NCBI GenBank assembly: GCA_010015585.1
Contig: ML975151.1
Direction: 5' to 3' (one strand)
DNA: 64,000 nucleotides
From: Eremomyces bilateralis CBS 781.70
Taxonomy: Eukaryota
The first letter of the stretch is position 1, and each line of letters begins with the position of its first letter. Below are positions 24,766 through 39,363 of the stretch, in pieces. The notes beneath the pieces are model-generated. The model did no database searches, was not told where the DNA came from, and was given only the letters and a program-made list of their open reading frames with translations. The translations under genes and the position numbers were made by a program.

Positions 24766-26287
24766 ACGGTCTTCTTTTGCGTCGTCCCAGTCCATCGATC
24801 GCGTGAGACACGTTTCAAAGATGTTTCATCTCCTCCCACCTCGCCCTCTCTTCGATCGCAGATGATAAAACGGATATCATAGACGCAGGCACACCTGCCG
24901 GTGTTCTGAGGTAGCTGGACTCTAACGCATCGGAGAGCGGAGATAGACAATAACACGAGACTCATGGAGAACGTAGCCTTCGCAGTCGAGGGTCTCTTGG
25001 CACCGGCACAGGCACAGTTCGGCGTCGTCACTCATGTTTGGCACGGCTATTCTACAGGTCATTCTGGCAGCTGATATCAATCTCGTTGACCCTTGCGTTT
25101 TCCCTTTCCTTTTATCCAACATCCCCTTCCTGAAATATCCAGTCTCGACCATCATGTTATGCTTCCCCCCGATCACAGCACCCCTTTCCCTCTCTTTTCG
25201 TCGTGCTGCGCAAGCTCCGTTCAAAATTGGTTTCCCTTACACGTAGCGATAGGTGATGGATAGTCCTCTAAACGAGGTTATCCGGGCATGATATCAAAAT
25301 CAGAAGTATTCTATGGATGTCTGTCTCCGCTGTGATTGAGATGGCGACATGAATGCCGAGGACGTTGATAGTGTCACCTTCGATTGCCAATATTCCTTCC
25401 AAGTGCCCCCCATGATCCATGCAGGTATTGTATTTGCAAGCGATTTTGGTCCATCTGAGCGTTTTCTGGTAGAAACATCAGATGTGGTACGTAGCCTTCC
25501 GTGGCTGAAGCGGACCCAGCCGTGTGACGGTTTCCCAGCCCGGCGCTTGCAGAGTGAAACTCACCCCGTCACCACGCATGTCCAAAGCGAGCGCATGTCT
25601 CGCGATGGGCCGTATCCACCTTGCATCCGAGCGAGCCTATCTAGATCATAGAAATGTAAGGAATCGCTAGACGACCAGGAATCGGATGACGTGGATGGAC
25701 AACCGTGAGAAGTGGGAAATGTGCGATACCGTCCACGTCGCGGTGATTGGCGCACGCGGGGCATCGGGGAACTTTCTAAGCGCGCTGTTGTCCCCCCCCT
25801 CCACTCTTCCCTGGTGGCCCATGATGTGGCCAGCCCCTTGGCGAATTGACGATGAGGACAGGCTTGGGATACTTGTACTCTTCGGGCTGGACGGGCGGCT
25901 AACTTACTGTTTATTCGTCGCCGGGGCTGGGTGGGACGTGAGAGACTTGGATTTGGACGCTTGAGGCTCCTTGTCAAGGACCACATCGCCGCCCAAGCAC
26001 CTGATACTATTAGGTATTGATCACGGCCATCATTTCTCGAATCTCAATCTGTCGCTGTAATTATACCTACTCAGCCCATCCCTCTTTTAGTTGGGGTTTC
26101 GAGTTTGATCTTAACTTCTTGACTTGATTCCTTCTTACTCTAAACATTGTATCCGTCTATAACTCCACCTGGAAGCTTGGGTTCACCCGCACTCCACTTC
26201 CCCGCCGAGTCCATCTCGGTCAGGGCATATTGACTTGGTGCGCTTGCATCACCGCAACCGGAACCCCACGACCACTCCCAAGCGACG

Positions 26288-29200
26288 ATGGACTCCAACG
26301 GCCGCCGTCACGGCCGGCCTGAAGAGGAACTGTTCTTCAAAAAACCCACCGACGAACCCGACACTCCCACCGTCGGTCCGTTGCGCATCAACAAAGCCAG
26401 CTCTCCAGAAGCCACCAGCAGCGGGAGCGGGAGCGCCGCAGACGTGGTCCCAGGCCATCCAGCGTTCTCCTTCCCCGCCCCTCCCACCGCGTCGAACCCG
26501 CTACCATATCCCGACGATCGACCCCCCCAGGCTGCCGGCGGCCGCTACACCCCCCTCTCCGAGCGCGACCGCACCTCGAAGAACTCGACTCCGGAGAGCG
26601 GCCGACCAAGGGAAGACAGCACGTCTCAAGGGTCTCCCCGCGCGCGATTCAGCGCAAACGATCCGAATCGCCCGACCCTGTCGGGATACGCGCATGCGCC
26701 CACCGGGTTTGACGGGCGGACGACCTCGCCGCAGAGCTCCTCGCTCTCGGAGCGCCGGCAGAACGTCCCCCGGCCGCTCCCCGAATCGCCGGGCCCAGAT
26801 GCGCCGGATAAAGAGGGCCTGTTCCAGCGACCGCCGCAGAGGGGGCCCGCTGCAGTAGCTGCAGCTGCCCCGCAGGATGGGGGGCGGAGACCATCGCAGG
26901 CGGAACTGAACCCGTACCCGGAGTATCATCAGCAGTACTGGCCTCCCCCCAACTCGGGAGGGCCAGACGGGAGTAAGAGCAGTGCCGGGGGGGGAGAACT
27001 GAGGATTCCCAACCCCGCGGGTATTAATCGATTGAGCTCGACGGCGTCGACGTCGACGACGCGAGCGCAGCGAGGGTCTCCGCCGCCGCCGGAGACTCCA
27101 GCGGCGGAGACCATGCCCGGGGGCGGGATTGAAGCGCGATTCGCTGCCGCTGGGGTGGCGGGAACGGGGACGTTGACCAACATGCAAGCGCAGAATCTGG
27201 CGGCGGCGCAACGGGCGCAGCCGTATCAAGGACTGCGGCCGAGGACAGAGAGCGCGGCTGCACAACAGCACCAGCAACAGCCGGCAAGAAGACCGTGGAC
27301 GCCTACTGAGGATCCGGGGAGCCAGCCGCATGGTCCTCCTACTGTCTATCATGGAAATTCCGAAGTGACAACATCGCCACCGCATGGGGCGGCAGGACAG
27401 ATGTCCCCCCCAGGTACTGCTGCCGCTCCGGGACGTCTCCCTGCCGAACATCCGATCGAGCATGATATGTCGCGGCTCAACATCACTGAGGAACCACCGC
27501 CAGCATATTCAACTTTGCAAGGGGCCCCTCAAGGGGGTCCTGGCGGCGTGACGGCTCGGGGATATCCGAACGAAAAGCACCCAGGAGCAGCCGGAGCTGC
27601 TGTGGGTGGCGCTGCGGTCGGCGCTGCGGTCGGCGCTGGCGTCGCAGGAGCCGCTCTGAGCCAACCTACGGCGACGACCGCTCCGATTCCCGCGGCGGGA
27701 GGCACCATGCCTGCAGCGGGACATCAAACGCATCCCGCGTTCGCAAACGATCCACGGCAGCAAACCGGATCTCCTCAAGCAGGACCATCGGGGACCCAGC
27801 AACCGGCGGTGAACACCTCGCCAGCCCCTGGGCAGGCACCGCCAGCGTCGCCACCTCCACTCCCGGAAGGCTGGATCGCGCATCTGGATCCTAACTCGGG
27901 ACAGTATTATTATATCCACCTGACGACCCAGTCGACCCAGTGGGAGTTCCCGAAAGGACCGACACCCTTGAATCTGAACGAGCCGCTGTCTCCAACGGGG
28001 ACGTTTGTCAATCCGCTGGCATCTCCCACGGTGGCTTCGTTCGGAAAACCGCTCGCGTCGCCTGGATTGCCAATCGCCCAGAGTGCAACGTACCACGACG
28101 GCATGGTTGGCGTTGCTGGACTCGCGAGCCCGACCGCCGCAGGGTTTACCGGGCCTCCACCCTCCGCGGGTGTGGATGTCTACAAGGTCCAGCCCACCAA
28201 CGGCGTCTACTTCGGACCCTACCTCCGCTACACGAACATGGACATCGAGCGTGGCCTGTGGCTCGGCTCCATCCTCCTCGTCACCGACGCACCGCAACCC
28301 CCAACCATCCACATCCACCAGAGCACCGACCTCTCCACGAATCCGCGCCAGTTGAAGTCCAACCCTATCTACAGCCACCAGCGCTGGATGTTCTACCGCT
28401 ACGACATCGACCTGAAAATGGAAGACGAAGGCAGCGTCAAGTGGACCTACGCCATCACCTCGCACCTCGGCTGCACGCGGTACGAATTCCTCGTGGCCGG
28501 CCGCTACGAGACCGCCTGGCGCTTCATCGCGCACTCTGGCAACGACTTTGCGCTGAACGTCTCGGCGAACGAGAGGACGCGCCTCGGAGGCGTGGGCTTC
28601 ATGTGGAAGGACATCCTACAGAAGCACATCGAGTGCAACGGGTTCCATGCGCAGCTGGGGCTGGGTGACCAGATCTATGCGGATCGCATGTGGAAGGAGC
28701 TCCCGCTGCTGCGGCAGTGGACGGCGATGAGCGGGAGGGAGAATCGGAAGAACGCGCCGTGGACGGCGAGGCATGAGGAGGATGTAACGCACGCGTACTT
28801 CCATTACTATACGAGCCACTTCGATCAGCCGCATTTGCGGGAGGCGTTTGCGCAGATCCCGCATGTGCTGACATTGGATGATCATGACATGTAAGTTCCC
28901 GTCGATGGAAACGACCAGGCAAGTTGCTCACCCGAAACCAGATTCGACGGCTTCGGCTCTTATCCCGAATACATGCAGTTCTCCAACATGTTCAAAAACA
29001 TCGGCCGCGTCGGCGTCGAGATGTACCTTCTCTTCCAACACCACACCACCCTGGAAATCCTGCGCAACGTTTCCAACGATATGGACCTCTTCACCATCAC
29101 CGGTACCGGCTGGCATTTCCTCAAGTACCTTGGCCCGGCTGTTGTCGTTGTCGGACCAGACACACGCTCGGAACGGAACCCGCACCAAGTCATGGCCGGC

Positions 29201-30195
29201 CCGACGTACCAAGGCCTCTTCCCCAAAGTGGCCCTGCTCCCACCCAGCGTGCAGCACTGCATCTGGATGGTCCCTGTACCGCTCGTGTATCCACGGCTGG
29301 AGAGCATGGAGCATCTCGCGCAGACGGTGGCGACGGGAAAGAAGGTCGCGACTGGGACGTTTAATATGCTTGGAAAGGTGACTAGTAGTGTGGCGGGTGT
29401 CGTGGGTGCGAAGGGGGTGGTCGGCGAGGGGTTCAATAGCGTGAAGAAGGCGGTTGGCAAGAGTGGGCTGATGAGCGGCATTTTGAGTCCATTTGGGGAG
29501 CTGGGCGTTTCGGATGAGTTGAGAGATTCGTGGATGCATGAGAGCAAGGTGGGTTATCCCGCCAATAGCTGGGTTGCATTGTGCTAATCTATGTGGCTTT
29601 AGGACTTGGAGCGGACTTATCTGATTCGGACGCTGCAAGGGATCGCGCACAATAAATCTTTGCGTATGACGTTCTTCTCAGGAGGTAAGCATTCGATCAC
29701 CCCTAACTCCACAGCTTTTATGCTAACCAAACTCCAGACGTCAATTGCTGCGGTGCCGGTCTCGTCCACGACCCGTCCCACCCCCAGGACCACAAAACCA
29801 TGTACCAAATAATCTCCTCAGCCGTCGGCAACGCCCCGCCCAGCCCCTACGTCCTCCGCCTCCTGCACAACAACCGGCCTCTCTACGTCCCCGCGAACGG
29901 CCACCGCTCCACCCACCAGCCGTCTGACACCAAAGAGGACATGATGGAGATCTTCTCCACCGATGTGAACGGCACCGCCCGGGAGATGAAGAAGCTGATG
30001 GCGCGGCGGAACTACGTCGCGTGCGTGGCGTACGATCCCGAGATCGTCGAGAGCCAGTTTGGGCAGGCGACGCCAGGGAAGGGGAGCGGGCGGATGAATT
30101 TGGCGGTGGACTTCTTGGTGCAGAACGAGGGGGTGTACGGGCAGCCGATGAAGTATGGGCCAGTGATTATTCCCAGCTTGGAGTATGGGAGATGA
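26288..30195 (+). CDS. Pro-rich, WW-domain, PhoD-like phosphatase domain protein, 4 exons
   Basis: WW domain LPEGWIAHLDPNSGQYYYIHLTTQSTQWEFP; PhoD-type GDQIYAD and LDDHDIFDGFGSY; introns 28891-28941, 29549-29602 and 29685-29737. Confidence 0.88.
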
Positions 30196-30428
30196 TGAGG
30201 TGATGACCTGGGAATATACATTGAATGCGTAGGATATGGCATTGACTTTCGGCGACTTGCCTTGTTTTCAGCGAGCGGTTGGTGATAAGCGAATTGAAAT
30301 CATTGGAATTACAAGGAGCCAGCTGCACCAGATGCGTCGCATGATAACCAGCTAGATGACCTGTGGTGCCCGTATGAGAGATGTACCGTACTCGCGGTCC
30401 GACAACCCGGTGAGACCGACTTTCTGCA

Positions 30429-32151
30429 CTATATCATCATACACCGTAACGGAGTCCACTTGTCTTCCGGCCGAGCTGACAAGCATTCCATCGTAGCCTT
30501 CGCATAAGCCACGCCCATCCGATGCCCTAACTGCTCCTCCGCCGTCACCTGAAAGATCCCCTGGATCCGCTTCGGAGCCAGCCGCTTCAAGTCCCGATTC
30601 GGTCTCGCTTCAGCCAGGATATCAGCCAACGGCCTCCACAACACGACCTCGAGCAGTACCAAACCCAGCGCGTAAACGTCGTGCGCCTTGCTGAACCAGG
30701 TGGTGGGAGAGCCCTGGCGGGCGGGATGTTGGTAAATGTTCTTGGACCAGACTTCGTCGAAGCCGGTGTATTCCGTTGCATCGGCTTCCAGCCGGGCATA
30801 CTCGAACCCGACCAGGTATGGGGATTCGAAGTCGATCTCCCCTCCCAGGGATTCAAAGAAGACAATGTTGCTGCTTCGGATCGACTTATGTAGCCAGGAT
30901 ACGGCGTGGAGATACCAAACAGTCTTTGCCAGGCGTTCGGCCAGCCTGAACCTCGTTTCTAATGACGGTGCATGCTTGGGTTCAGTGGCTTCAAGAGCAG
31001 ACCGCAAGGAGAAAAAGGAGGCGGAGGATGTATTCTCTGGGAAGTCGAATACAAAAGCGTGGCGCTCTTTTCCATTGACGTAACTTCATTCTATGAGCCC
31101 GCGGAACGGCAGCGTCTTGAGATCTGGATCGGACGAAGCCGCGAGTAGGTTTGCCAACTGGTTCACGGCGGTCATGTTTTTCTCCAGTCCCAGATCCCCA
31201 TACTCTTTATATTCTGCGAGTACATTCTCTGCTCTCCCAGGACCTGCGGTTAGCGTTACTAGAGCCAGTGACTCGTCACCACGCTGCGTGAATGACTGAA
31301 GCCCAAAATCTTTCAGCTCGAACCCCGATATATCCACATTTGGTTGCAAGGTAATCCTCTTTAGAGACATGAACGGCGCCAGACCAAAGGCCTTCCCCGC
31401 AGGTTCCTTTGTCTCCTTGAGCAACGCCTCAGATACAGCGGGTGGGTATCCATTTGCTACATGTATGATCTGATCCATCATACATCCCAGACTAATTTCT
31501 TTCAGCTTACCGTTCCAACATTTGAAGGACACCAAGATGCTCTCGAACTTCCGCCTTGTATGTAAAGCCCATTTTAAACCAGTAGAGGTGTTGGTCCACC
31601 AGCTGGCGCCTCCTTTTTGAGTCCATTCTTCGGTTGTGATCAGGGTGTTGCGTTTGCGGGGAGTCGAGTTCCAAGGGAAACCCAATCAGATAAGGGGCCG
31701 CTTGGTCGTCGTTGAATAAGGCAGAGTGTTTCGGTATCCGCGCCTCTGGTTCGTCAGCTGAAGCTTACTCATCCTCAGTTTTGAGGGCGCTCCCAATGAG
31801 CAAGTCCTTTGCAGCGAGGGCTTGGTAATCACTGAATAGACGGTGGAGCTGCTGAAGATCATATTCGATCAATTCGAGCCAATGCTATTACAGTGAACGT
31901 GAGTTCATGTCGTTGAATGTCATACTGTGGGGCCCCTCACCTTTGTCAAGACTCCCAAACTCCGAGTTGGCCAGGAAACGCTGACCAAAATCCCTCAAAA
32001 ATAACACCTCGTGATGGAAATCGATGCACAGCTTGAGTTTCTCTGGTACGGCATTATTTGCTGGTTCGATGACTTTGTAGATTGTGGGAGACAGAAGGAA
32101 GACTGCTTTGAACACCGTTACGGCCGCGAAGGCCAAGCTGAGGGGTTCCAT
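30429..32151 (-). pseudogene. HeLo-like N-terminal domain + kinase-like domain gene, disrupted
   Basis: Hydrophobic start MEPLSLAFAAVTVFK; intron 31940-31885; HeLo-type LKWALHTRRKFESILVSFKCWNGKL; kinase-like C-lobe RFRLAERLAKTVWYLHAVSWLHKSIRSSNIVFF, PYLVGFEYAR, YQHPARQG, DVYALGLVLLE. In-frame stops TAA (31765-67) and TGA (31086-88), plus a frame change near 31700. Confidence 0.78.
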
Positions 32152-32716
32152 TCTCAAATCGTCCCCGACTGTTGAAGGTCCGGTCATGGACTGTGAAGTC
32201 ACGGCCAGAGAGTCTCATCGGAAATGGACAGAATATCTCATATTCATTGTGTATACATGACTCTGACCATGTGTTCCAGGCGAGTTATAATTGATACTTG
32301 TGCCTTATCACTTCCACCCTTTCTCACCCCCCATTCTCCATCCACCGCCTGTTGGTTGTCATGCAACCCAGGATAGGATTATGGATTGCAGGTCTAGAAG
32401 GGCTTGGTGAGTATAATCTATTGGTTCTTACTTCGATGGATGGCAAAAAGCCACCAATTTACAACTCATCAGTACAACCCAGGGGCTTCAGCATGGGTTG
32501 GCGCTCAGTTGCAGAAATGGTGCAGCTTGAGGCTCAAGGCTGTGCCAGAGGGCCAGAACATCATATCCTTTTATCATTATCGAAAGGTTTATCGTATCAT
32601 AAAGATACGGTGCCTAGCTACTACTTGCTAATTGTCTCGTCGGCGTTTCATCTTGCCATCATCCTGTTTATACATGTCTTGACTGTATTGTTGAGTCTCG
32701 TCTTCAGCCTTTTAAC

Positions 32717-34748
32717 ATGGCTTCCCCTACTCCAACTTTTTTTAAGTGGTATCGTTTGAGCGTGGAAAGTCTCCCTAGAGTTTGCCTTGATGTGATCAAC
32801 GATGGAACGGCTCCTCAGAATGGCAAGCTGCAGATGGCACCAGTCGGCAATTACACCGGCCAGCATTGGCAGTTTATTCCATCTCCTGGAGGGTCCTTTG
32901 CACTACTGACTTTATATACAGGCACTGACATGTTTCTTCGGAACGACAATCGCATTCCTCATCTCGGCCTCGACCACATCGATGATAGATGGCGATTGGA
33001 GCACCTCCCTTCCCTGGGAGCGGAAGAGATTACGCGGTTCAGACTGTACTCGGAAATTGGGGCCCCTTCGAAGCTCTATTTTGGACCAGAGAGTGATCGC
33101 ACCTGGTTCAATGGACAGAGACTCCATCTTCGGTCATCTCAAGCCCGCCATGCTACTGTCTGGATTCTTTCGGAGATAAGACCCATCTGGGAGCCGGAGT
33201 TCCTCATTTCACCATTAATATCCCCAGAGTCAACTGGTGACTGGACAAATGTCCGTACTTCGGAGGGAAGTCGAAAGGATGGGCAGGCCAACATGGTTAC
33301 AGATGATGTAGACCACTTGGTGGTGTTAATACAGCGGCTAACTGCTCGCAAAGCACCTCCTGGCTCGTAAGTTTTACGATTTCCTTATTCCGGATCTTTT
33401 ATTTGACTCTTGAAAGGACATATAAACTTAGTCCATCGGGAAATGCGCTAATATATCTCGATATTCGTAGGTTGGACTGGCAAAGTGCGACGGCGGCATC
33501 AACGTCCTTACCTTCGGATTCTCACCTTCTAGAGTTCTCTTCCTGGTCACGAACGAGCGGTACGGTAAACAATCTTACCCTCAGGACATACCTAGGGTTG
33601 ATGAACCCCTCAACGACAACCATCCTGGATGTCTCCGCGGGCTTTCGCTCCCCAGAGATCTCGAGAAATATTGCCGACTCCAATCCAGCCAGTTCCGGGG
33701 GTTCACCCGCAATTGCCTACAGCGAGAGTACTCCCAGCTACACCAACCTTTACACTCTTGTGTCTCAAAGAAATGACACTTCAGGGCTGATCTACATCTT
33801 TATCATCCGTCCTGGGACTATATTTACGAAACGGGGCATGGTGACCTCCCATCCTCACAAATGGATTTGCCAAATTGAGGGCGACCTCACAAGTTTCAGC
33901 ATCAGCTCTTTCGGGTTACGACGGATTGGCCAGGGCGATAATATACCGCAAAACTATATTTGGAGTGACAAAGGTGTGGATGCTCAATTCAGAAACCGCG
34001 AGAACCTACCTAACCAACATATCGCGTATCTTGGACATGGTCTACGTACCAAGATCTGGTCCTACTTTGGATGTCTGGCGAACGGCCTTATGCATATGCA
34101 CGCGAATGGTATCCGACATCGAGACATAAAACCTCGCAATATCCTTGCCACATTGATGGGCCTTTATATGCCGACTTTGGTAATAATTTCCTTCAGATAG
34201 GTCGAACATTTCGCTAACGGTATCAGGCATTACCAGAGAATTTTCGGACGCGTTGGGAAGCACCACTTCCGGTCCTACGACAAAGACGTATGAATATTGC
34301 GCCCCGGAAGTAGCTGATGGCACAGAACGAGGCCGCAGTGCCGACATCTTTCTCGCTCGGATGCGTATTTCTTGAACTACTGACCGTTGTCACCGGCTTC
34401 TCCACATACCAAGAGTGTAGAACACGCCGAAACAAAGGGCCCGACTCATCATACCATGCGAATATGGAAAACACAGGGAAGTGGATGAATGACATTTACA
34501 ACCAAGGGCTCGAAACTGCCGAAGAACCTGGTGAAAGTGGGATCAGCTAGTTGTCATTGCTGATCCGTTCAATGATGCACCCACAGCGAGAGAAGCGGCC
34601 TTCGGCGTCAATGGTCTGGAAGTTCATTCGAGAGACAAACTTCTTACCTCTTGGGAAAGCGGACAGAGGGCACTTATTAGGACCTTGCTGTCTTCAATAT
34701 CCGGTCATTCGTTTGGAATCGCAAGAGAAGGATGGGGAACAGAGCTAG
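32717..34748 (+). pseudogene. Ricin-B-lectin-like N-terminus + Ser/Thr protein kinase gene, disrupted
   Basis: CLDVINDG...LQMAPVGNYTGQHWQF (QxW lectin-like); intron 33367-33470; FGCLANGLMHMHANGIRHRDIKPRNIL; frameshift near 34150; YADF|G across intron 34180-34226; YCAPEV; SADI then an extra T near 34350 before FSLGCVFLE; in-frame TAG 34548-50; EKRPSA. Confidence 0.78.
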
Positions 34749-37180
34749 AAAACGAATCTAATCAAAATAGCATACATAATTTGGAACAGGAGTACCTATA
34801 CTTTCTTGTCAGGCTCGAGTTGACGCCTCGATAACATGTTTCAGTCCTTCCGTGGCTGGATCAGGTCTTATATTGGCCGTTGCCCGTTGGAGGTTCTTTC
34901 TCACTTAGAAATGCCAAATTTTGGTCAGACACAATCAGATTGTTCGCTCGAGCAGTCTACCGTGTAAGTAAGGCATACTTGTGGTCATATGAAAATATGG
35001 ATTGGAGAGTGGATTTAAAAGGTGGTAACTACTGATGTTGACTGACCGGGCAGATTTTTCTTCCACAATAGAGCCGAAGCATAGCAAGATAGGGCCACGT
35101 ATGAAAATAGAAACGCTTCCAAATCTTACCTGATAATTGATACCCTCTAACCCTTTTATTTGTCAACAAAATGACTAATATCAGCGATCATGACCAACCT
35201 TCCCTTGGTATGTACAAGCCATCAGTGATACTGACGAAGGCCTCACAACATGCTCAATGGCGCTCCTAAGACTTTGACGTCGGGGTTACGTTGCCTCTTG
35301 CCCGAGACAGGTCGTACTTCCGACCCTCTTCCGATTCACAATCAATCAAATATCCGACTCTACGGAGCCGCAAAGCCGCATCCGGTCAGGAGTTCACCCA
35401 GACCAGGCAGCAAATGCATATCATCACTGACGCAACCCCGGAACCGGGGTGGCGAATGGTCGGATTCTGCCTCGCAAGGCTGAGGGCGGTGTTGGTATTC
35501 TGACACATCACCCCGCACGGGATTCGCGTCGTGGGAAAGAACTTAAATTGTCCTCCGCCTGCTCGGTCAATTGATCAGGTCGGTCGGGATGTCCTTCGGG
35601 TTTTAGGCTTCCATATAGACGTGAAACGTGGTGGAACGGGAGGACTGGTCGAGGATATCCGGTTTCAACTTTTGTTTGCAGCTTCGGATTTCGGACACGG
35701 TGTTCTTAGCCTATCATTAGCCATCGTGTTGACTCTATGGTATATTTCTCATTGATTAGCAATTAATGGCTACCACCGGTGAGTTCGACGGAAAGGGATA
35801 GGAATAGACTGCCTCCCGTTGATCGATGGTGTAACGACCGTGATACGGCAGCTTTCACGGTCGGAATGACGGGAAGTATATGGTAACGCCTAGGAAATCG
35901 TCATAGAAGTCAGGATGCCTTTTCGACTGGTTTCTAATGGAGTTCGAGATGAGGGGGTGATGGCAGTTTTCGTCCCGAGCGGCTTCAGACTAGTTATGTC
36001 CGGTCGGTTTGGATCAGGATTTGCCGGAAATTCACATGGCACAACTGCTAATTATTGCGAATTGTAATGCATCAAGTTTACAGGCTGCACGGAACCGTAT
36101 CAGCGAGGGAGCGGGCCGCCAACCGCTCGCATATGAGCCAGATTTGATCCCACCACTGGCAGACCACGACCAGAGGCATGGCGATAGATGACTGGTAGCG
36201 ATGGGATTATGAACCGTGATACAGCGTCTGAAGCGTCCCAGCAGCAGGGTCATGGAGCCGATTTGGCAACCATAAACCTGGGAACATTGGATTCTAGTCG
36301 TTGTTGACCGGAAGGTTGAAAATGCCGGGGTTAGGTGGAATACGAGGATCGAGAGAAGCGTTGGATTGGTGGCAATGCTCGGTGTGCGACGTCTCAAGGT
36401 CATTGTTTGATGATAACCGAAATGCTGGCTTCGGACACTGCTCCTCTCGATCTGGTGGACATCCTTTTGTTGAACGGTAAAAGTTTGATTTCTGTCTCGT
36501 GAAAAATCTGTCGTGACATGTTCCCAGCGTCCCAACAGAAGGAAATTGGGGAAGATGAAGCGGCGAGAATGGAAATATTGAGGACTGGACCGACAAAGCC
36601 CCGCGGATCGTCATGCGTCTTAACTCCTAGTACGGATGGAAATAAATACTTCCCCGGTCATTCGATTGGTTTGCCGCCAGACCATCAATCCAAACACGTT
36701 CTGGTTTCTTGTTGCATAACTTGCATTAGCAATGCCTCCTCATTCGCCCACCACCATCCCTGACCCCCTCTCCTCCACACAATACTCATGCACACCATCA
36801 TTCTTTTATGTCGTCTCACAACATGTGGATGCCTCCGGCCTTCCAGACCGGTCACTTGACGATCCCTCTAAGCCCAAACTGGTGACCAGAGAAACAGTTA
36901 GTAGAGACCGACGGACCGTCCATTGCTGTTCAGCCGTGGCCGGATGGGGGTGCCCGGTAAGATATACTAAGACGATGGACCGCAACGGCTACGGCATTTC
37001 CAACATGGCATTCCCATGTGGTCGATCTTCACATATCTAAAAGACTAGTCCTTGAATCGAAGTTCTGTAGTTCCTCCCAGTTTCTTCCACATCTCTCCAC
37101 TCCAGAGTTTTGGCTTCATATCATGTCGTTTTAATAATTTTCTTTTTCTTCGTACGATCTTTTACCACCCTCTCTTCGTA

Positions 37181-39363
37181 ATGGAGAACCGCGAATCCAT
37201 CCTGCAGATGGTGCGGTGGGGCACCCGTTTGTCCCTCGCCTTGTTCTCCGTGAGCGGTGCCTCCGGCGATCTCAACCGCCTCGCGAAGAAAGTCAATAAG
37301 TTTTCCCTCGTTCTGCGTCAGGTTGGGTCACGATTTCAGGAAGAGAGCATTTCGTCTCCCCAATCTGCGAGAGCCGTCACCCACATCCTACACCAAGCAC
37401 AAGGGGTGTTCGGCGAGATCGAGACAATAGTGCCCCAAGCGGCGGAATATGTCAGGGATACGAGCACGTCGTGGACATCAGTGAAGGTGGGGACAACATG
37501 GCAGTGGGACGAGGCGGCCGAGGACAAAGCGCATTATCTGCTGGAACATCTCGAGGCGTTGGCGTTGACACTTCAAGTGATGCTGCAGACGTTCTATACA
37601 GTCAAGATTACAGTGTGGGCAAGGTAAGCTTAGGGACGTCAAAATATAGAATTAATGCTAAATCGGTGCGGTACAGACAACAGACTACTCAAAACGCACG
37701 AGACGCTGTATCTACAGAACGACTACAGCTTCAGAGCTTGATCATCGAACAGCAGCTCTGCATATTGAATACACACCAACTCCACCTCGACTATCGTTTA
37801 GATAATGTTCCCTCTCGTTCCCAGGTGTTGACGGTACTCGAGGAACGGCAACCATGCCCCCAACATCTCGTCTCTTACCAGGAGGAATCCTTGGTCGCCA
37901 TCGACGTAGATAATACGGAATCCCAGCGGTTAGAAGTTGTTCGCAAGGTGGCAGGTTCGTACATCGACGAACTTCTGAGACGATGGACAAGACTAGAAGA
38001 AATTGAGCAGGACATCCGTCAAGAGGAGTTTCAGACTCGAGCACAACAAGAGCGTGAGATGCAAACCGTATCGAGGAGAGCTTCGCAGCAACCAAGCGTT
38101 GAGGAAGATGATGAGGAGCACAACCTCAAGCATCCGGTCCCCAAAAACTGTGCCCCTGGCCCTCTCCTGACACCTATGAGCGAGACTCACTACGCGAAGG
38201 CTGGTACGACTCCAATCTCCATACCCGGATCCAAGGATCGTGTTGACAATGGCATCCCATCAGGCTTCAACCAGTTCACAAGGCCCAACTTCTTCCCCCC
38301 GTCCCCGGCTCAATCTGCTCATTCGGGATGTATACCAACATCCCCCCGCCCCAGCATCGCCGAGTCTGTGCGATCGGCTCCGATCATTGAAGAGTCGGAA
38401 GGCATGGGAATTCCATGGACGCTGAAGATCCACAAGCACCGCTGGGACTACAACGACAACATCATAGTCGACTCGAACTCACAGCTGCAGCCGTCCCAGT
38501 CCCCGGCTGATAAATCGGGAATCACGGAAATCCACCAGAGTTGGGTCCGTCCCGAAGCGATGGAAGAGGTCGACTATGAGTTCGTTAAGGTCACCAAGGA
38601 AATCATCGAAAATGGGCGTACCAAATTCGAACCGTGTTTTCAAATCCAAAAGCGCCTATCCTTCGATGAAGTCGAGAACTTGGTCACCCGGAGTGCAGAG
38701 ATCTTCAGCAAAACTCACCCGTCCACTCCGCCATCCCCAGATCTCCCTCCAACCCGGACCGATCCTCCGCCCCTTGACCGCGCTATGTCTCTGCCTATTT
38801 CCGCCCTTGTACACTCCGTCCCAACGCTCCAACAGTCCCAGCATATCTATCCACTCCCTTCTCCCTCCGACTCTCGCACCCAGTACGACCCCCGCCGCCC
38901 TCGCCGCCTAAGCACCAACACCATGCCACCCCCGACCCTACAACCACCACCCCCAACCATCCCCCACCAACGCTACGCCCCCTTCTCCCCCCATTCCCCT
39001 CAATTCCCCCTTCCCCCTCCCCACCACCTCCGCTCCAGCGACTCCGACCTCTCCGACTCCGACCACTCCCGCCACCTCCACGAGCGCTCCTACCGCGAAC
39101 ACCGCCAGCGCAGTCGCGCGCGCCGCGACTCCGGGACCTCGCGCTCGGGCACAGCGTTGGTCTACAGTGAGCCGGGGGCGGGGAACCGGAAGGCGCGGGG
39201 AGAGGGCGGGCGGAGGAGCGGTAGCGTGAGTGGTGGGGGGAAGAAGGGGGGGAATGGGCTTGGGTTGGGTGTGGCGAATCGGGGGATGTTTAAGGGGTTG
39301 ATGGCGGGGTCGGGTGTTGCTGCGTTGGTGGATGGGTTGGCGGAGGGGTTGGGGGGGCTTTGA
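37181..39363 (+). CDS. Hypothetical fungal protein (helical N-terminus, Pro-rich C-terminus), 2 exons
   Basis: ATG 37181; intron 37624-37676 (GTAAGC..GCTAA..CAG) joins two long ORFs in frame. Confidence 0.75.

Follow-up and report, generated by a model that had tools for sequence, protein, structure and literature searches.

We conclude that a head-to-head gene pair of the fungus Eremomyces bilateralis CBS 781.70 is very probably a decayed member of a conserved pairing, in which the gene for a protein kinase lies beside a gene for a HeLo domain fused to a pseudokinase. The window analysed is a stretch of 64,000 nucleotides from contig ML975151.1 (GenBank assembly GCA_010015585.1). The two genes start at 32151 (minus strand) and 32717 (plus strand), with 565 bp between the ATGs, and both start sites were found where a first-pass annotation, made from the sequence alone, had placed a divergent pair. 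That annotation had also proposed a unit of sensor kinase and executioner pseudokinase. The pair is indeed conserved at the level of the family, but the copy in the window consists of two pseudogenes, and therefore the window holds no working module. The best explanation overall, which we consider likely, is that the locus derives from a conserved two-gene unit with an executioner laid out like MLKL and a divergent kinase gene, for which we propose killing triggered by phosphorylation.

Recurrence and inheritance of the gene pair

The pair recurs in other fungal sequences. Metagenome contigs were scanned with the family alignment of the minus gene, and the best 80 of 125 confirmed stretches were used. 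Two loci without a match to a pseudokinase open reading frame (ORF) were excluded (L001 and L035), and the other 78 fell into 55 clusters at ≥90% identity. Upstream sequence was informative in 36 clusters (35 with at least 2.5 kb, and one shorter but showing a kinase). An opposite-strand ORF with a protein kinase (Pkinase) domain lies within 2.5 kb upstream of the pseudokinase ORF in 21 of these 36 clusters, or in 20/35 if the full 2.5 kb is demanded, whereas no kinase lies within 2.5 kb downstream in any of 33 informative clusters (Fisher p = 2e-8). Four kinase genes in 341,693 nt of far flanks give an expectation of 1.05 upstream kinases, against 21 observed. The Pkinase match is above the Pfam cut-off in 25 of the 27 ORFs tested, including those of all 21 paired clusters, and the median ORF-to-ORF gap of the 21 pairs is 684 nt. 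The intact pair nearest to the window pseudokinase, L003, has its ATGs ~460 bp apart, compared to 565 bp in the window. A lack of adjacency of the homologs in other genomes had been named beforehand as an observation that would overturn the proposal, but they do lie side by side, head to head in 21/36 clusters, against 0/33 with a kinase downstream. Two of the four far-flank kinases are displaced partners, one in a tandem ~1.3 kb upstream (L060) and one 3.6 kb upstream, past a patatin gene (L071).

The pairing is old and inherited as a unit. Paired loci are present in both deep halves of the pseudokinase tree, and within the 30-row clade that includes the window pseudokinase (support 96 in the Shimodaira-Hasegawa-like approximate likelihood ratio test, SH-aLRT) 11 informative clusters are paired and one is unpaired. 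The partner kinases form two clades, A and B (supports 100/99 and 98/94), which largely track the two pseudokinase halves, and neither clade includes the two generic flank kinases. A check of co-phylogeny had been suggested with the first-pass annotation, and the two gene families were found to co-diverge, with kinase and pseudokinase distances correlated across the 21 pairs (Mantel Spearman r = 0.32, 0/5000 permutations as high). As far as sequence distances go, this co-variation shows co-inheritance, not co-evolution in the strict sense.

Domains of the paired proteins

Relatives of the minus gene were sought with a read-through of 30432-31685 in which one TGA was written as X. There were 38 at E ≤ 1e-5, with PF24476 (DUF7580) in 23/38 and PF14479 (HeLo) in 17/38, and they include named proteins of Mollisia, Monosporascus, Tuber, and Trichoderma. 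A HeLo-like N-terminus had been read in the minus gene, and the family profile agrees. Profile A3, built from 22 family sequences including both N-terminal pieces of the window, matches the solved HET-s/HET-S HeLo structures 2wvo, 2wvn, and 2wvq (E 6e-15 to 1.5e-13, profile positions 2-232), and on these matches the family N-terminus shares homology with the HET-s HeLo domain. Among single proteins, P0012 passes the PF14479 cut-off (25.3 bits versus 23.2) and P0011 stays below it (21.1). The model of P0011 residues 1-195 is all-helical, with a predicted local distance difference test (pLDDT) score of 75.

The kinase-like part of profile A3 matches IRAK4 and LIMK1 (E 4.7e-10 to 4.9e-10), MLKL (4btf, E 8.5e-10), and also BRAF. 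Orthology to MLKL is not established, because IRAK4 and LIMK1 score equally well. Residues 234-568 of the P0011 AlphaFold model have a kinase fold (Z 20-21, with 250-270 residues aligned to BRAF, MerTK, and JAK). The full-length model has at least 500 Foldseek matches at E ≤ 1e-3, generic kinases, and MLKL is not among the 50 matches listed. Across 70 family sequences a W-x-H-K motif is invariant, the position of the catalytic Asp lies outside the columns that are ≥75% conserved (it is Ser in the window), and DFG is replaced by GF[ED], with G for Asp in 64/70. The domain, which has lost the Asp residues of both HRD and DFG, is a pseudokinase. Where the GF[ED] motif could be located (62 pseudokinases), its G is followed 10-13 residues later by a Ser or Thr in 61 (Thr in 52); composition would lead one to expect ~42%.

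The partner kinases look active. All 21 retain the motif H-x-D-[ILVM]-K-x-x-N and the catalytic Asp, and 20/21 retain DFG. Their catalytic loops are mostly of the type lacking the arginine-aspartate pair (non-RD; HKD, HGD, HND, HED, or HSD in 20/21), with HRD only in L048 and in the window remnant. C-terminal ankyrin repeats are present in 12/21 and a TPR_10/TPR_12 array in one, such that at least 13/21 carry repeats; Pfam detected no NACHT or NB-ARC domain in the partner ORFs. One partner, L020:4488-7601 (minus strand), has a GGACT/AIG2-like gamma-glutamyl cyclotransferase domain just before its ankyrin repeats (27.4 bits versus 22.8). The first-pass annotation had likened the kinase to RIPK3, a likeness that does not hold up. 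The best solved matches of the partner-kinase profile A4 are GCN2, EGFR, CTR1, TYK2, ULK3, and Aurora, with IRAK4 also near, and no RIP kinase is among the 60 matches listed. The partner is thus predicted to be a generic eukaryotic protein kinase and not a relative of RIPK3. The same annotation had taken a lectin-kinase to be the module partner. A kinase partner does recur, but the lectin head is an exception, because at least 13/21 partners carry ankyrin or TPR repeats. Across both protein libraries searched, the entire lectin head and the middle domain that follows it are common to only P0040 (LTS10_013304), from Elasticomyces elasticus, and this combination is an unusual variant on the sensor side.

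Proposed mechanism and alternatives

In the mechanism that we propose, the kinase gene, divergent from its neighbor across a shared intergenic region of ~0.5 kb, would encode an active-looking Ser/Thr kinase with a presumed ligand- or partner-binding part. A trigger would be sensed through the repeat or lectin part, after which the kinase would engage and phosphorylate the pseudokinase domain of the neighbor, probably at the conserved Ser/Thr in the equivalent of the activation segment. Phosphorylation would release the HeLo domain, which would permeabilize the membrane and cause cell death, as RIPK3 does with MLKL. In the Eremomyces window, disabling mutations have built up in both partners. 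This sequence of events is proposed by analogy with RIPK3-MLKL, as set out in the part of PMC12881547 available to us. In full, with a sensor kinase phosphorylating the neighboring pseudokinase and so freeing the HeLo domain to kill, it is a tentative proposal that we hold as possible. Equally tentative is a wider reading by the same analogy, namely that an ancient module widespread in filamentous fungi may use a mostly non-RD kinase with ankyrin, TPR, or lectin parts to phosphorylate the activation-segment Thr and free the HeLo domain. Such a module would be a counterpart of RIPK3-MLKL, whether independent or inherited, and would be a third form of executioner control in fungi, beside amyloid templating and proteolysis.

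Several results weigh against the phosphorylation mechanism or against placing the window within the paired family. What adjacency and co-divergence establish is that the genes are linked and inherited together; they do not establish that the pseudokinase is a substrate of the kinase. The kinase is missing in 15/36 informative clusters, so the executioner is able to exist without this partner, and the conserved Ser/Thr is present in the unpaired members as well (15/15). The 22 ORFs tested upstream of unpaired clusters include four for patatin-like phospholipases (three clusters, divergent) and three for Zn2Cys6 factors (two clusters). The neighbors of the closest minus-gene relatives (P0003-P0008) and of P0040 lie outside the pairing count. 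For the HeLo assignment, the N-terminal model of P0011 had no Foldseek match in the PDB at E ≤ 1e-3, and a wide VIA comparison returned generic helical bundles only (best Z 9.6). Pfam, proposed as a check with the first-pass annotation, gave a divided answer for the window itself; DUF7580 passes its cut-off, but the Pkinase and RicinB matches are sub-threshold, and minus exon 1 (87 residues) alone matches no family at E ≤ 1. The window pseudokinase belongs to the half of the tree with mostly clade A partners, yet the window kinase remnant groups with P0040 and clade B (support 98/94). With no more than 102 columns left to compare, the approximately unbiased (AU) test does not reject the alternative placements of this remnant (clade A, p 0.22; generic kinases, p 0.21).

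These observations give some room to shared regulation as the entire explanation, in which a bidirectional promoter co-expresses stress or defense proteins that are independent of each other, the HeLo-pseudokinase not being a target of the kinase. The evidence for the pair is limited to adjacency, orientation, and co-divergence, and the unpaired clusters and the patatin neighbors standing in the place of the kinase would fit a looser "defense island". We nevertheless consider this unlikely, given the strict head-to-head closeness with no kinase downstream, the retention of the pairing on either side of the deep split in the family, where the kinase clades match, and the joint decay of both partners in the window. 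A fusion of pseudokinase and executioner that is switched by a cognate kinase also has a precedent in MLKL.

The direction of action could also be reversed, with the pseudokinase serving as allosteric activator or scaffold of the kinase, the HeLo domain as a membrane anchor, and the kinase as the output. A dead kinase beside a live one, conserved as a pair, resembles known pseudokinase-kinase pairs, and non-RD kinases, which account for 20/21 partners, do not as a class depend on activation-loop phosphorylation. This arrangement is nonetheless improbable in our estimation, since the N-terminus shares homology with the HeLo death domain of HET-s, which has been described as permeabilizing membranes, and since the repeat arrays typical of sensors are found on the kinase and not on the pseudokinase. 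We retain, as the best explanation, a decayed unit in which the kinase may have controlled the HeLo-pseudokinase.

The patatin-like phospholipase genes that are divergent upstream neighbors of the pseudokinase gene, in four loci that lack a partner kinase, lie at L056:6193-7905, L071:3632-5221, L073:6381-8291, and L080:6391-8013, all on the minus strand. In L071 the kinase, patatin, and HeLo-pseudokinase genes occur within ~7 kb.

Decay of both genes in the window

Both genes in the window are interrupted repeatedly (Table 1). The minus gene encodes a hydrophobic N-terminus (MEPLSLAFAAVTVFKAVFLL), and its exon 1 is 36% identical (tblastn E 2e-11) to residues 1-102 of P0011, an intact relative, and 41% identical to exon 1 of the L003 gene. 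Excision of intron 1 shifts exon 1 out of the frame of the conserved HWLELIEYDLQQL, and because the frame is broken the mRNA ends after ~78 codons, at the stop 31861-31859. Alignment to P0003, P0004, P0005, and P0011 (tblastn) places a frameshift, from frame -2 to frame -3, between 31663 and 31637. An insertion of 19-20 residues with an in-frame TAA (31767-31765) is absent from the aligned close relatives P0003, P0004, and P0005. Further on, a TGA at 31088-31086 falls within the conserved LPFRG-x-I stretch, and a second frameshift near 30500-30480 leaves the conserved tail VYDDIVQKVGL, to 30376, in another frame and unreadable. The lesions of the minus gene total two in-frame stops, two frameshifts, and a frame-breaking intron. 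P0002, a public 444-residue model, bypasses them only by omission of conserved parts. At 95% identity, the translated minus gene matches a protein model of E. bilateralis CBS 781.70, which is a dothideomycete.

Despite these lesions the pseudokinase domain is recognizable. The last 218 residues (30432-31085, minus strand) match DUF7580 (PF24476) at 27.5 bits versus a cut-off of 27 (E 3e-6), and the alignment to P0003, at 59% identity, runs across the in-frame stop. The noncanonical motifs that had been reported for this gene are present, HKSIRSSN at 30890-30867 and GFE at 30809-30801 (both minus strand).

The insertion in the minus gene contains a short dispersed repeat at 31734-31795. Word depth there is 1347/4020, versus 144/214 alongside. 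Loose ends fall here too, as do pieces from other large contigs, which match the repeat at one mismatch. No second copy was found within the window, and the word depth indicates that the repeat is multicopy in the genome. On the minus strand it has intron-like signals (GTAAGC..CTGAC..CAG, 23 nt apart), and no splicing was seen. An introner-like element and the footprint of a small transposon are both candidates for its nature.

The plus gene opens with a head whose exon 1 is 46% identical to P0040 residues 2-218 (E 5e-47). A lectin-like N-terminus had been claimed for it, and the comparison with other proteins agrees, in that an exhaustive phmmer search with the head retrieved 350 proteins from the library at E ≤ 1e-3, many of which align to it in three places, and RicinB_lectin_2 or Ricin_B_lectin exceeds its cut-off in the relatives P0041 (E 2.5e-22) and P0043 (E 1e-20). 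The head itself is below the Pfam threshold (RicinB_lectin_2 E 0.068, 14.3 bits versus 25.6). It is homologous to ricin-B-type beta-trefoil lectins (PF14200/PF00652), with putative sugar binding. The middle domain has no Pfam match and no usable ESM Atlas match, and its comparison (alignment A1) to the N-terminal extension of the partner kinases (A4) was uninformative (hhalign probability 2.9%).

The kinase domain of the plus gene is, to judge from its alignments, a remnant without a complete catalytic core. An N-lobe deletion of ~75-100 residues removed the beta-3 lysine and helix C. The canonical motifs noted in the first-pass annotation are at their sites, HRDIKPRN at 34117-34140, DFG at 34173-34179 continued at 34227-28, and APE at 34301-34309 (all plus strand), but HRD, DFG, and APE with the C-lobe occupy three different frames, and the N-lobe is deleted. 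A frameshift at 34168-34170 lies just 5' of ADFG (34170-34179), and the true frame of exon 2 puts exon 3 out of frame, ending at TAG 34311-34313. The C-lobe has a further frameshift at 34349-34352 (ADIF|SLGCVFLELL) and an in-frame TAG at 34548-34550. Pkinase (PF00069) reaches 29.0 bits versus a cut-off of 31.7, over profile positions 100-131 only, compared to 52-131 bits in the intact partners. The model of P0040 terminates within the kinase N-lobe.

Plus intron 1 had been taken as 33367-33416 (50 nt) through homology to P0040, and this is superseded by the RNA-supported 33367-33470. The 3' 54 nt of the longer intron (33417-33470) translate in frame and resemble the P0040 stretch YKL..L.YLDI.RL; they are either former coding sequence that is now spliced out, or intron retained in the P0040 model.

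Three sequencing runs cover 30300-34900. X1 and X2 are DNA-like, share one sample, and may be what the assembly was built from; X3 is from another sample and study. Their contigs have zero alternative letters and zero indels over this region, and X3 record 21 spans the C-lobe remnant with zero other letters. The record of X3 has no RNA label, and we treat the run as RNA-like solely because of four GT..AG joints that are missing from the DNA runs, at 31885-31940 (minus strand), 33367-33470, 34180-34226, and, at low depth, 32406-32920. With the splicing observed, the plus mRNA is open over 32717-34179 and stops at 34311-34313. Both window genes are still transcribed and spliced, with truncated products only.

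It is very hard to credit that the genes are in fact intact and that the lesions are sequencing or assembly errors. Two of the frameshifts do lie in short homopolymer runs (e.g., TTT at 34349-34351), as errors might, but three lesions are substitutions to stop codons and one is a deletion of ~75-100 codons. The stops and frameshifts are not assembly errors, because X1, X2, and X3, the last from a different sample and study, agree base for base.

The continued transcription also raises the question of whether the genes remain alive, with shortened and repurposed products such as a ~480-residue decoy or lectin made of the lectin head and middle domain. Spliced RNA-like contigs cover both genes, and the plus frame is open from its ATG to 34179 once the RNA-supported intron is removed. 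The minus mRNA, however, ends early, the plus product would lack the N-lobe, DFG, and C-lobe, and further frameshifts and a stop mark the decay of the kinase sequence downstream, as would be expected if selection were absent. The two libraries searched contain no protein model of the plus gene. We judge this survival improbable and regard both genes as pseudogenes.

Table 1. Features of the gene pair in the window, with example partner-kinase ORFs from other loci
Feature	Position	Strand	Basis or remark
Linker and pseudokinase (DUF7580) domain	30376..31493	-	Pfam DUF7580; 59% identity to P0003
Remaining HeLo domain (WLELIEYDLQQL...KWALHTRRKFESILVSFKCWNGKLKEI), two frames	31494..31884	-	tblastn with P0003, P0004, P0005, P0011
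Short dispersed repeat inside 19-20 residue insertion	31734..31795	.	Word depth; tblastn versus homologs
Minus intron 1, 56 nt, GT..AG	31885..31940	-	X3 joint 31884>31941, none in DNA runs
Minus exon 1 (MEPLSLAFAAV...GSLDK), N-terminal hydrophobic helix plus helix 2 of HeLo	31941..32151	-	tblastn versus P0011
Intergenic region common to both ATGs	32152..32716	.	Presumed bidirectional promoter; 565 bp
Plus exon 1, open frame; beta-trefoil head, ricin-B-like, with GQHWQF and degenerate repeats	32717..33366	+	P0040 homology
Plus intron 1, 104 nt, GT..AG, frame-preserving	33367..33470	+	X3 joint 33366>33471
Middle domain, open frame, in common only with P0040	33471..34029	+	Alignment A1
Kinase remnant, G-loop LGHG (34030-34041) to helix E and catalytic loop	34030..34179	+	P0040 alignment; tblastn with L037, L040, L048, L063 kinases
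Plus intron 2, 47 nt, GTAATA..GCTAAC..CAG	34180..34226	+	X3 joint 34178>34226 (cut +1)
Kinase C-lobe remnant, ITREFSD..YCAPE to ..HPQREKRPSA.., last stop 34746-34748	34227..34748	+	tblastn with L037, L048 kinases spans TAG
Partner-kinase ORFs, examples	L063:6719-7900; L003:1114-3993

Surroundings of the pair

Upstream of the pair, the neighboring gene for a protein with a WW domain and a PhoD_2 phosphatase domain (three exons, 26234-30195, plus strand) appears intact. Its G+C content is 0.62, versus 0.49-0.52 across the pseudogene pair. Repeat-induced point mutation was rejected as the cause of the decay, as TpA/ApT (0.64-0.67) and the composite index (1.18-1.20) resemble those of the remaining window. 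The X3 joint at 32406-32920 (plus strand) has a 30-nt side; it suggests a plus transcript whose start lies within the minus 5' end or upstream of it and which bypasses the ATG at 32717, or it may be a chimeric contig. A 5080-nt RNA-like contig over the plus gene extends more than 3.2 kb past 34900 (to ~38150), toward a 687-residue ORF at 37300-39363 (plus strand) that has no Pfam match and a Pro/Ser-rich tail.

Significance and comparison with known systems

HeLo and 4HB executioners occur in fungi, plants, and animals. To our knowledge, a kinase that acts on a fused pseudokinase as a switch is known only in animals. A conserved linked pair makes it possible to ask, by co-expression, whether phosphorylation-gated killing of the necroptosis type occurs beyond the animals. 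In the partner kinases, the repeat and lectin parts would then be candidate sensors for fungal immunity or allorecognition, of a new class that is distinct from NOD-like receptors (NLRs). The window locus itself is a dead copy; its value is as a pointer to the intact pairs L003, L048, L040, L020, and L063 and as an example of the joint decay of both partners.

According to the part of PMC12881547 available to us, HeLo domains act as death effectors that target membranes and are related to the 4HB domain of MLKL, RIPK3 phosphorylates MLKL within its pseudokinase domain and so activates it, and clusters of two or three genes are frequent in fungal death pathways. The arrangement had been put forward as one not known to be described in this form. 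This applies to the adjacent kinase, for which nothing was found in print, but HeLo-kinase fusions themselves have already been mentioned in the same source (PMC12881547, available portion). Plant MLKLs also have this layout (10.1101/681015). A full-text literature search, which reached neither subscription papers nor supplements, found no description of a kinase/HeLo-pseudokinase pair, and the term DUF7580 does not occur in the full-text literature searched. The module is thus apparently undescribed.

Compared to RIPK3-MLKL, the fungal pair is alike in that the executioner joins a helical, membrane-targeting domain at its N-terminus to a pseudokinase, which in the family profile matches MLKL itself (4btf), and in that a separate, active-looking Ser/Thr kinase is the candidate activator. 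It differs in that the partner kinase is not a relative of RIPK3 and has repeats of the ankyrin or TPR type, or else a lectin head, and in that the fungal genes are adjacent and divergent, with phosphorylation that is putative. A RHIM was not seen, although no search aimed at it was made.

The fungal systems controlled by amyloid templating, HET-S/NWD2 and HELLP/PNT1, share with the pair an N-terminal HeLo domain (here homologous to that of HET-s) and a two-gene cluster of sensor and executioner. In contrast to these, the C-terminal control module of the pair is a pseudokinase rather than a prion-forming amyloid motif, and the neighbor is a repeat-bearing kinase rather than a NOD-containing NLR. 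The HET-Q1/HET-Q2 clusters of gasdermin and protease likewise place a pore-forming executioner beside an enzyme, one that is often fused to ANK, TPR, or WD40 repeats (PMC12881547, in the part available), whereas the pair described here would be activated by phosphorylation in place of proteolysis and has an executioner of another fold. Closest in domain content are the published HeLo/HELL-kinase fusions, for which the available parts of PMC12881547, PMC10197012, PMC9815663, and PMC12258605 name no dedicated neighboring kinase, unlike the pairs found here, in which a kinase gene stands head to head with the fusion.

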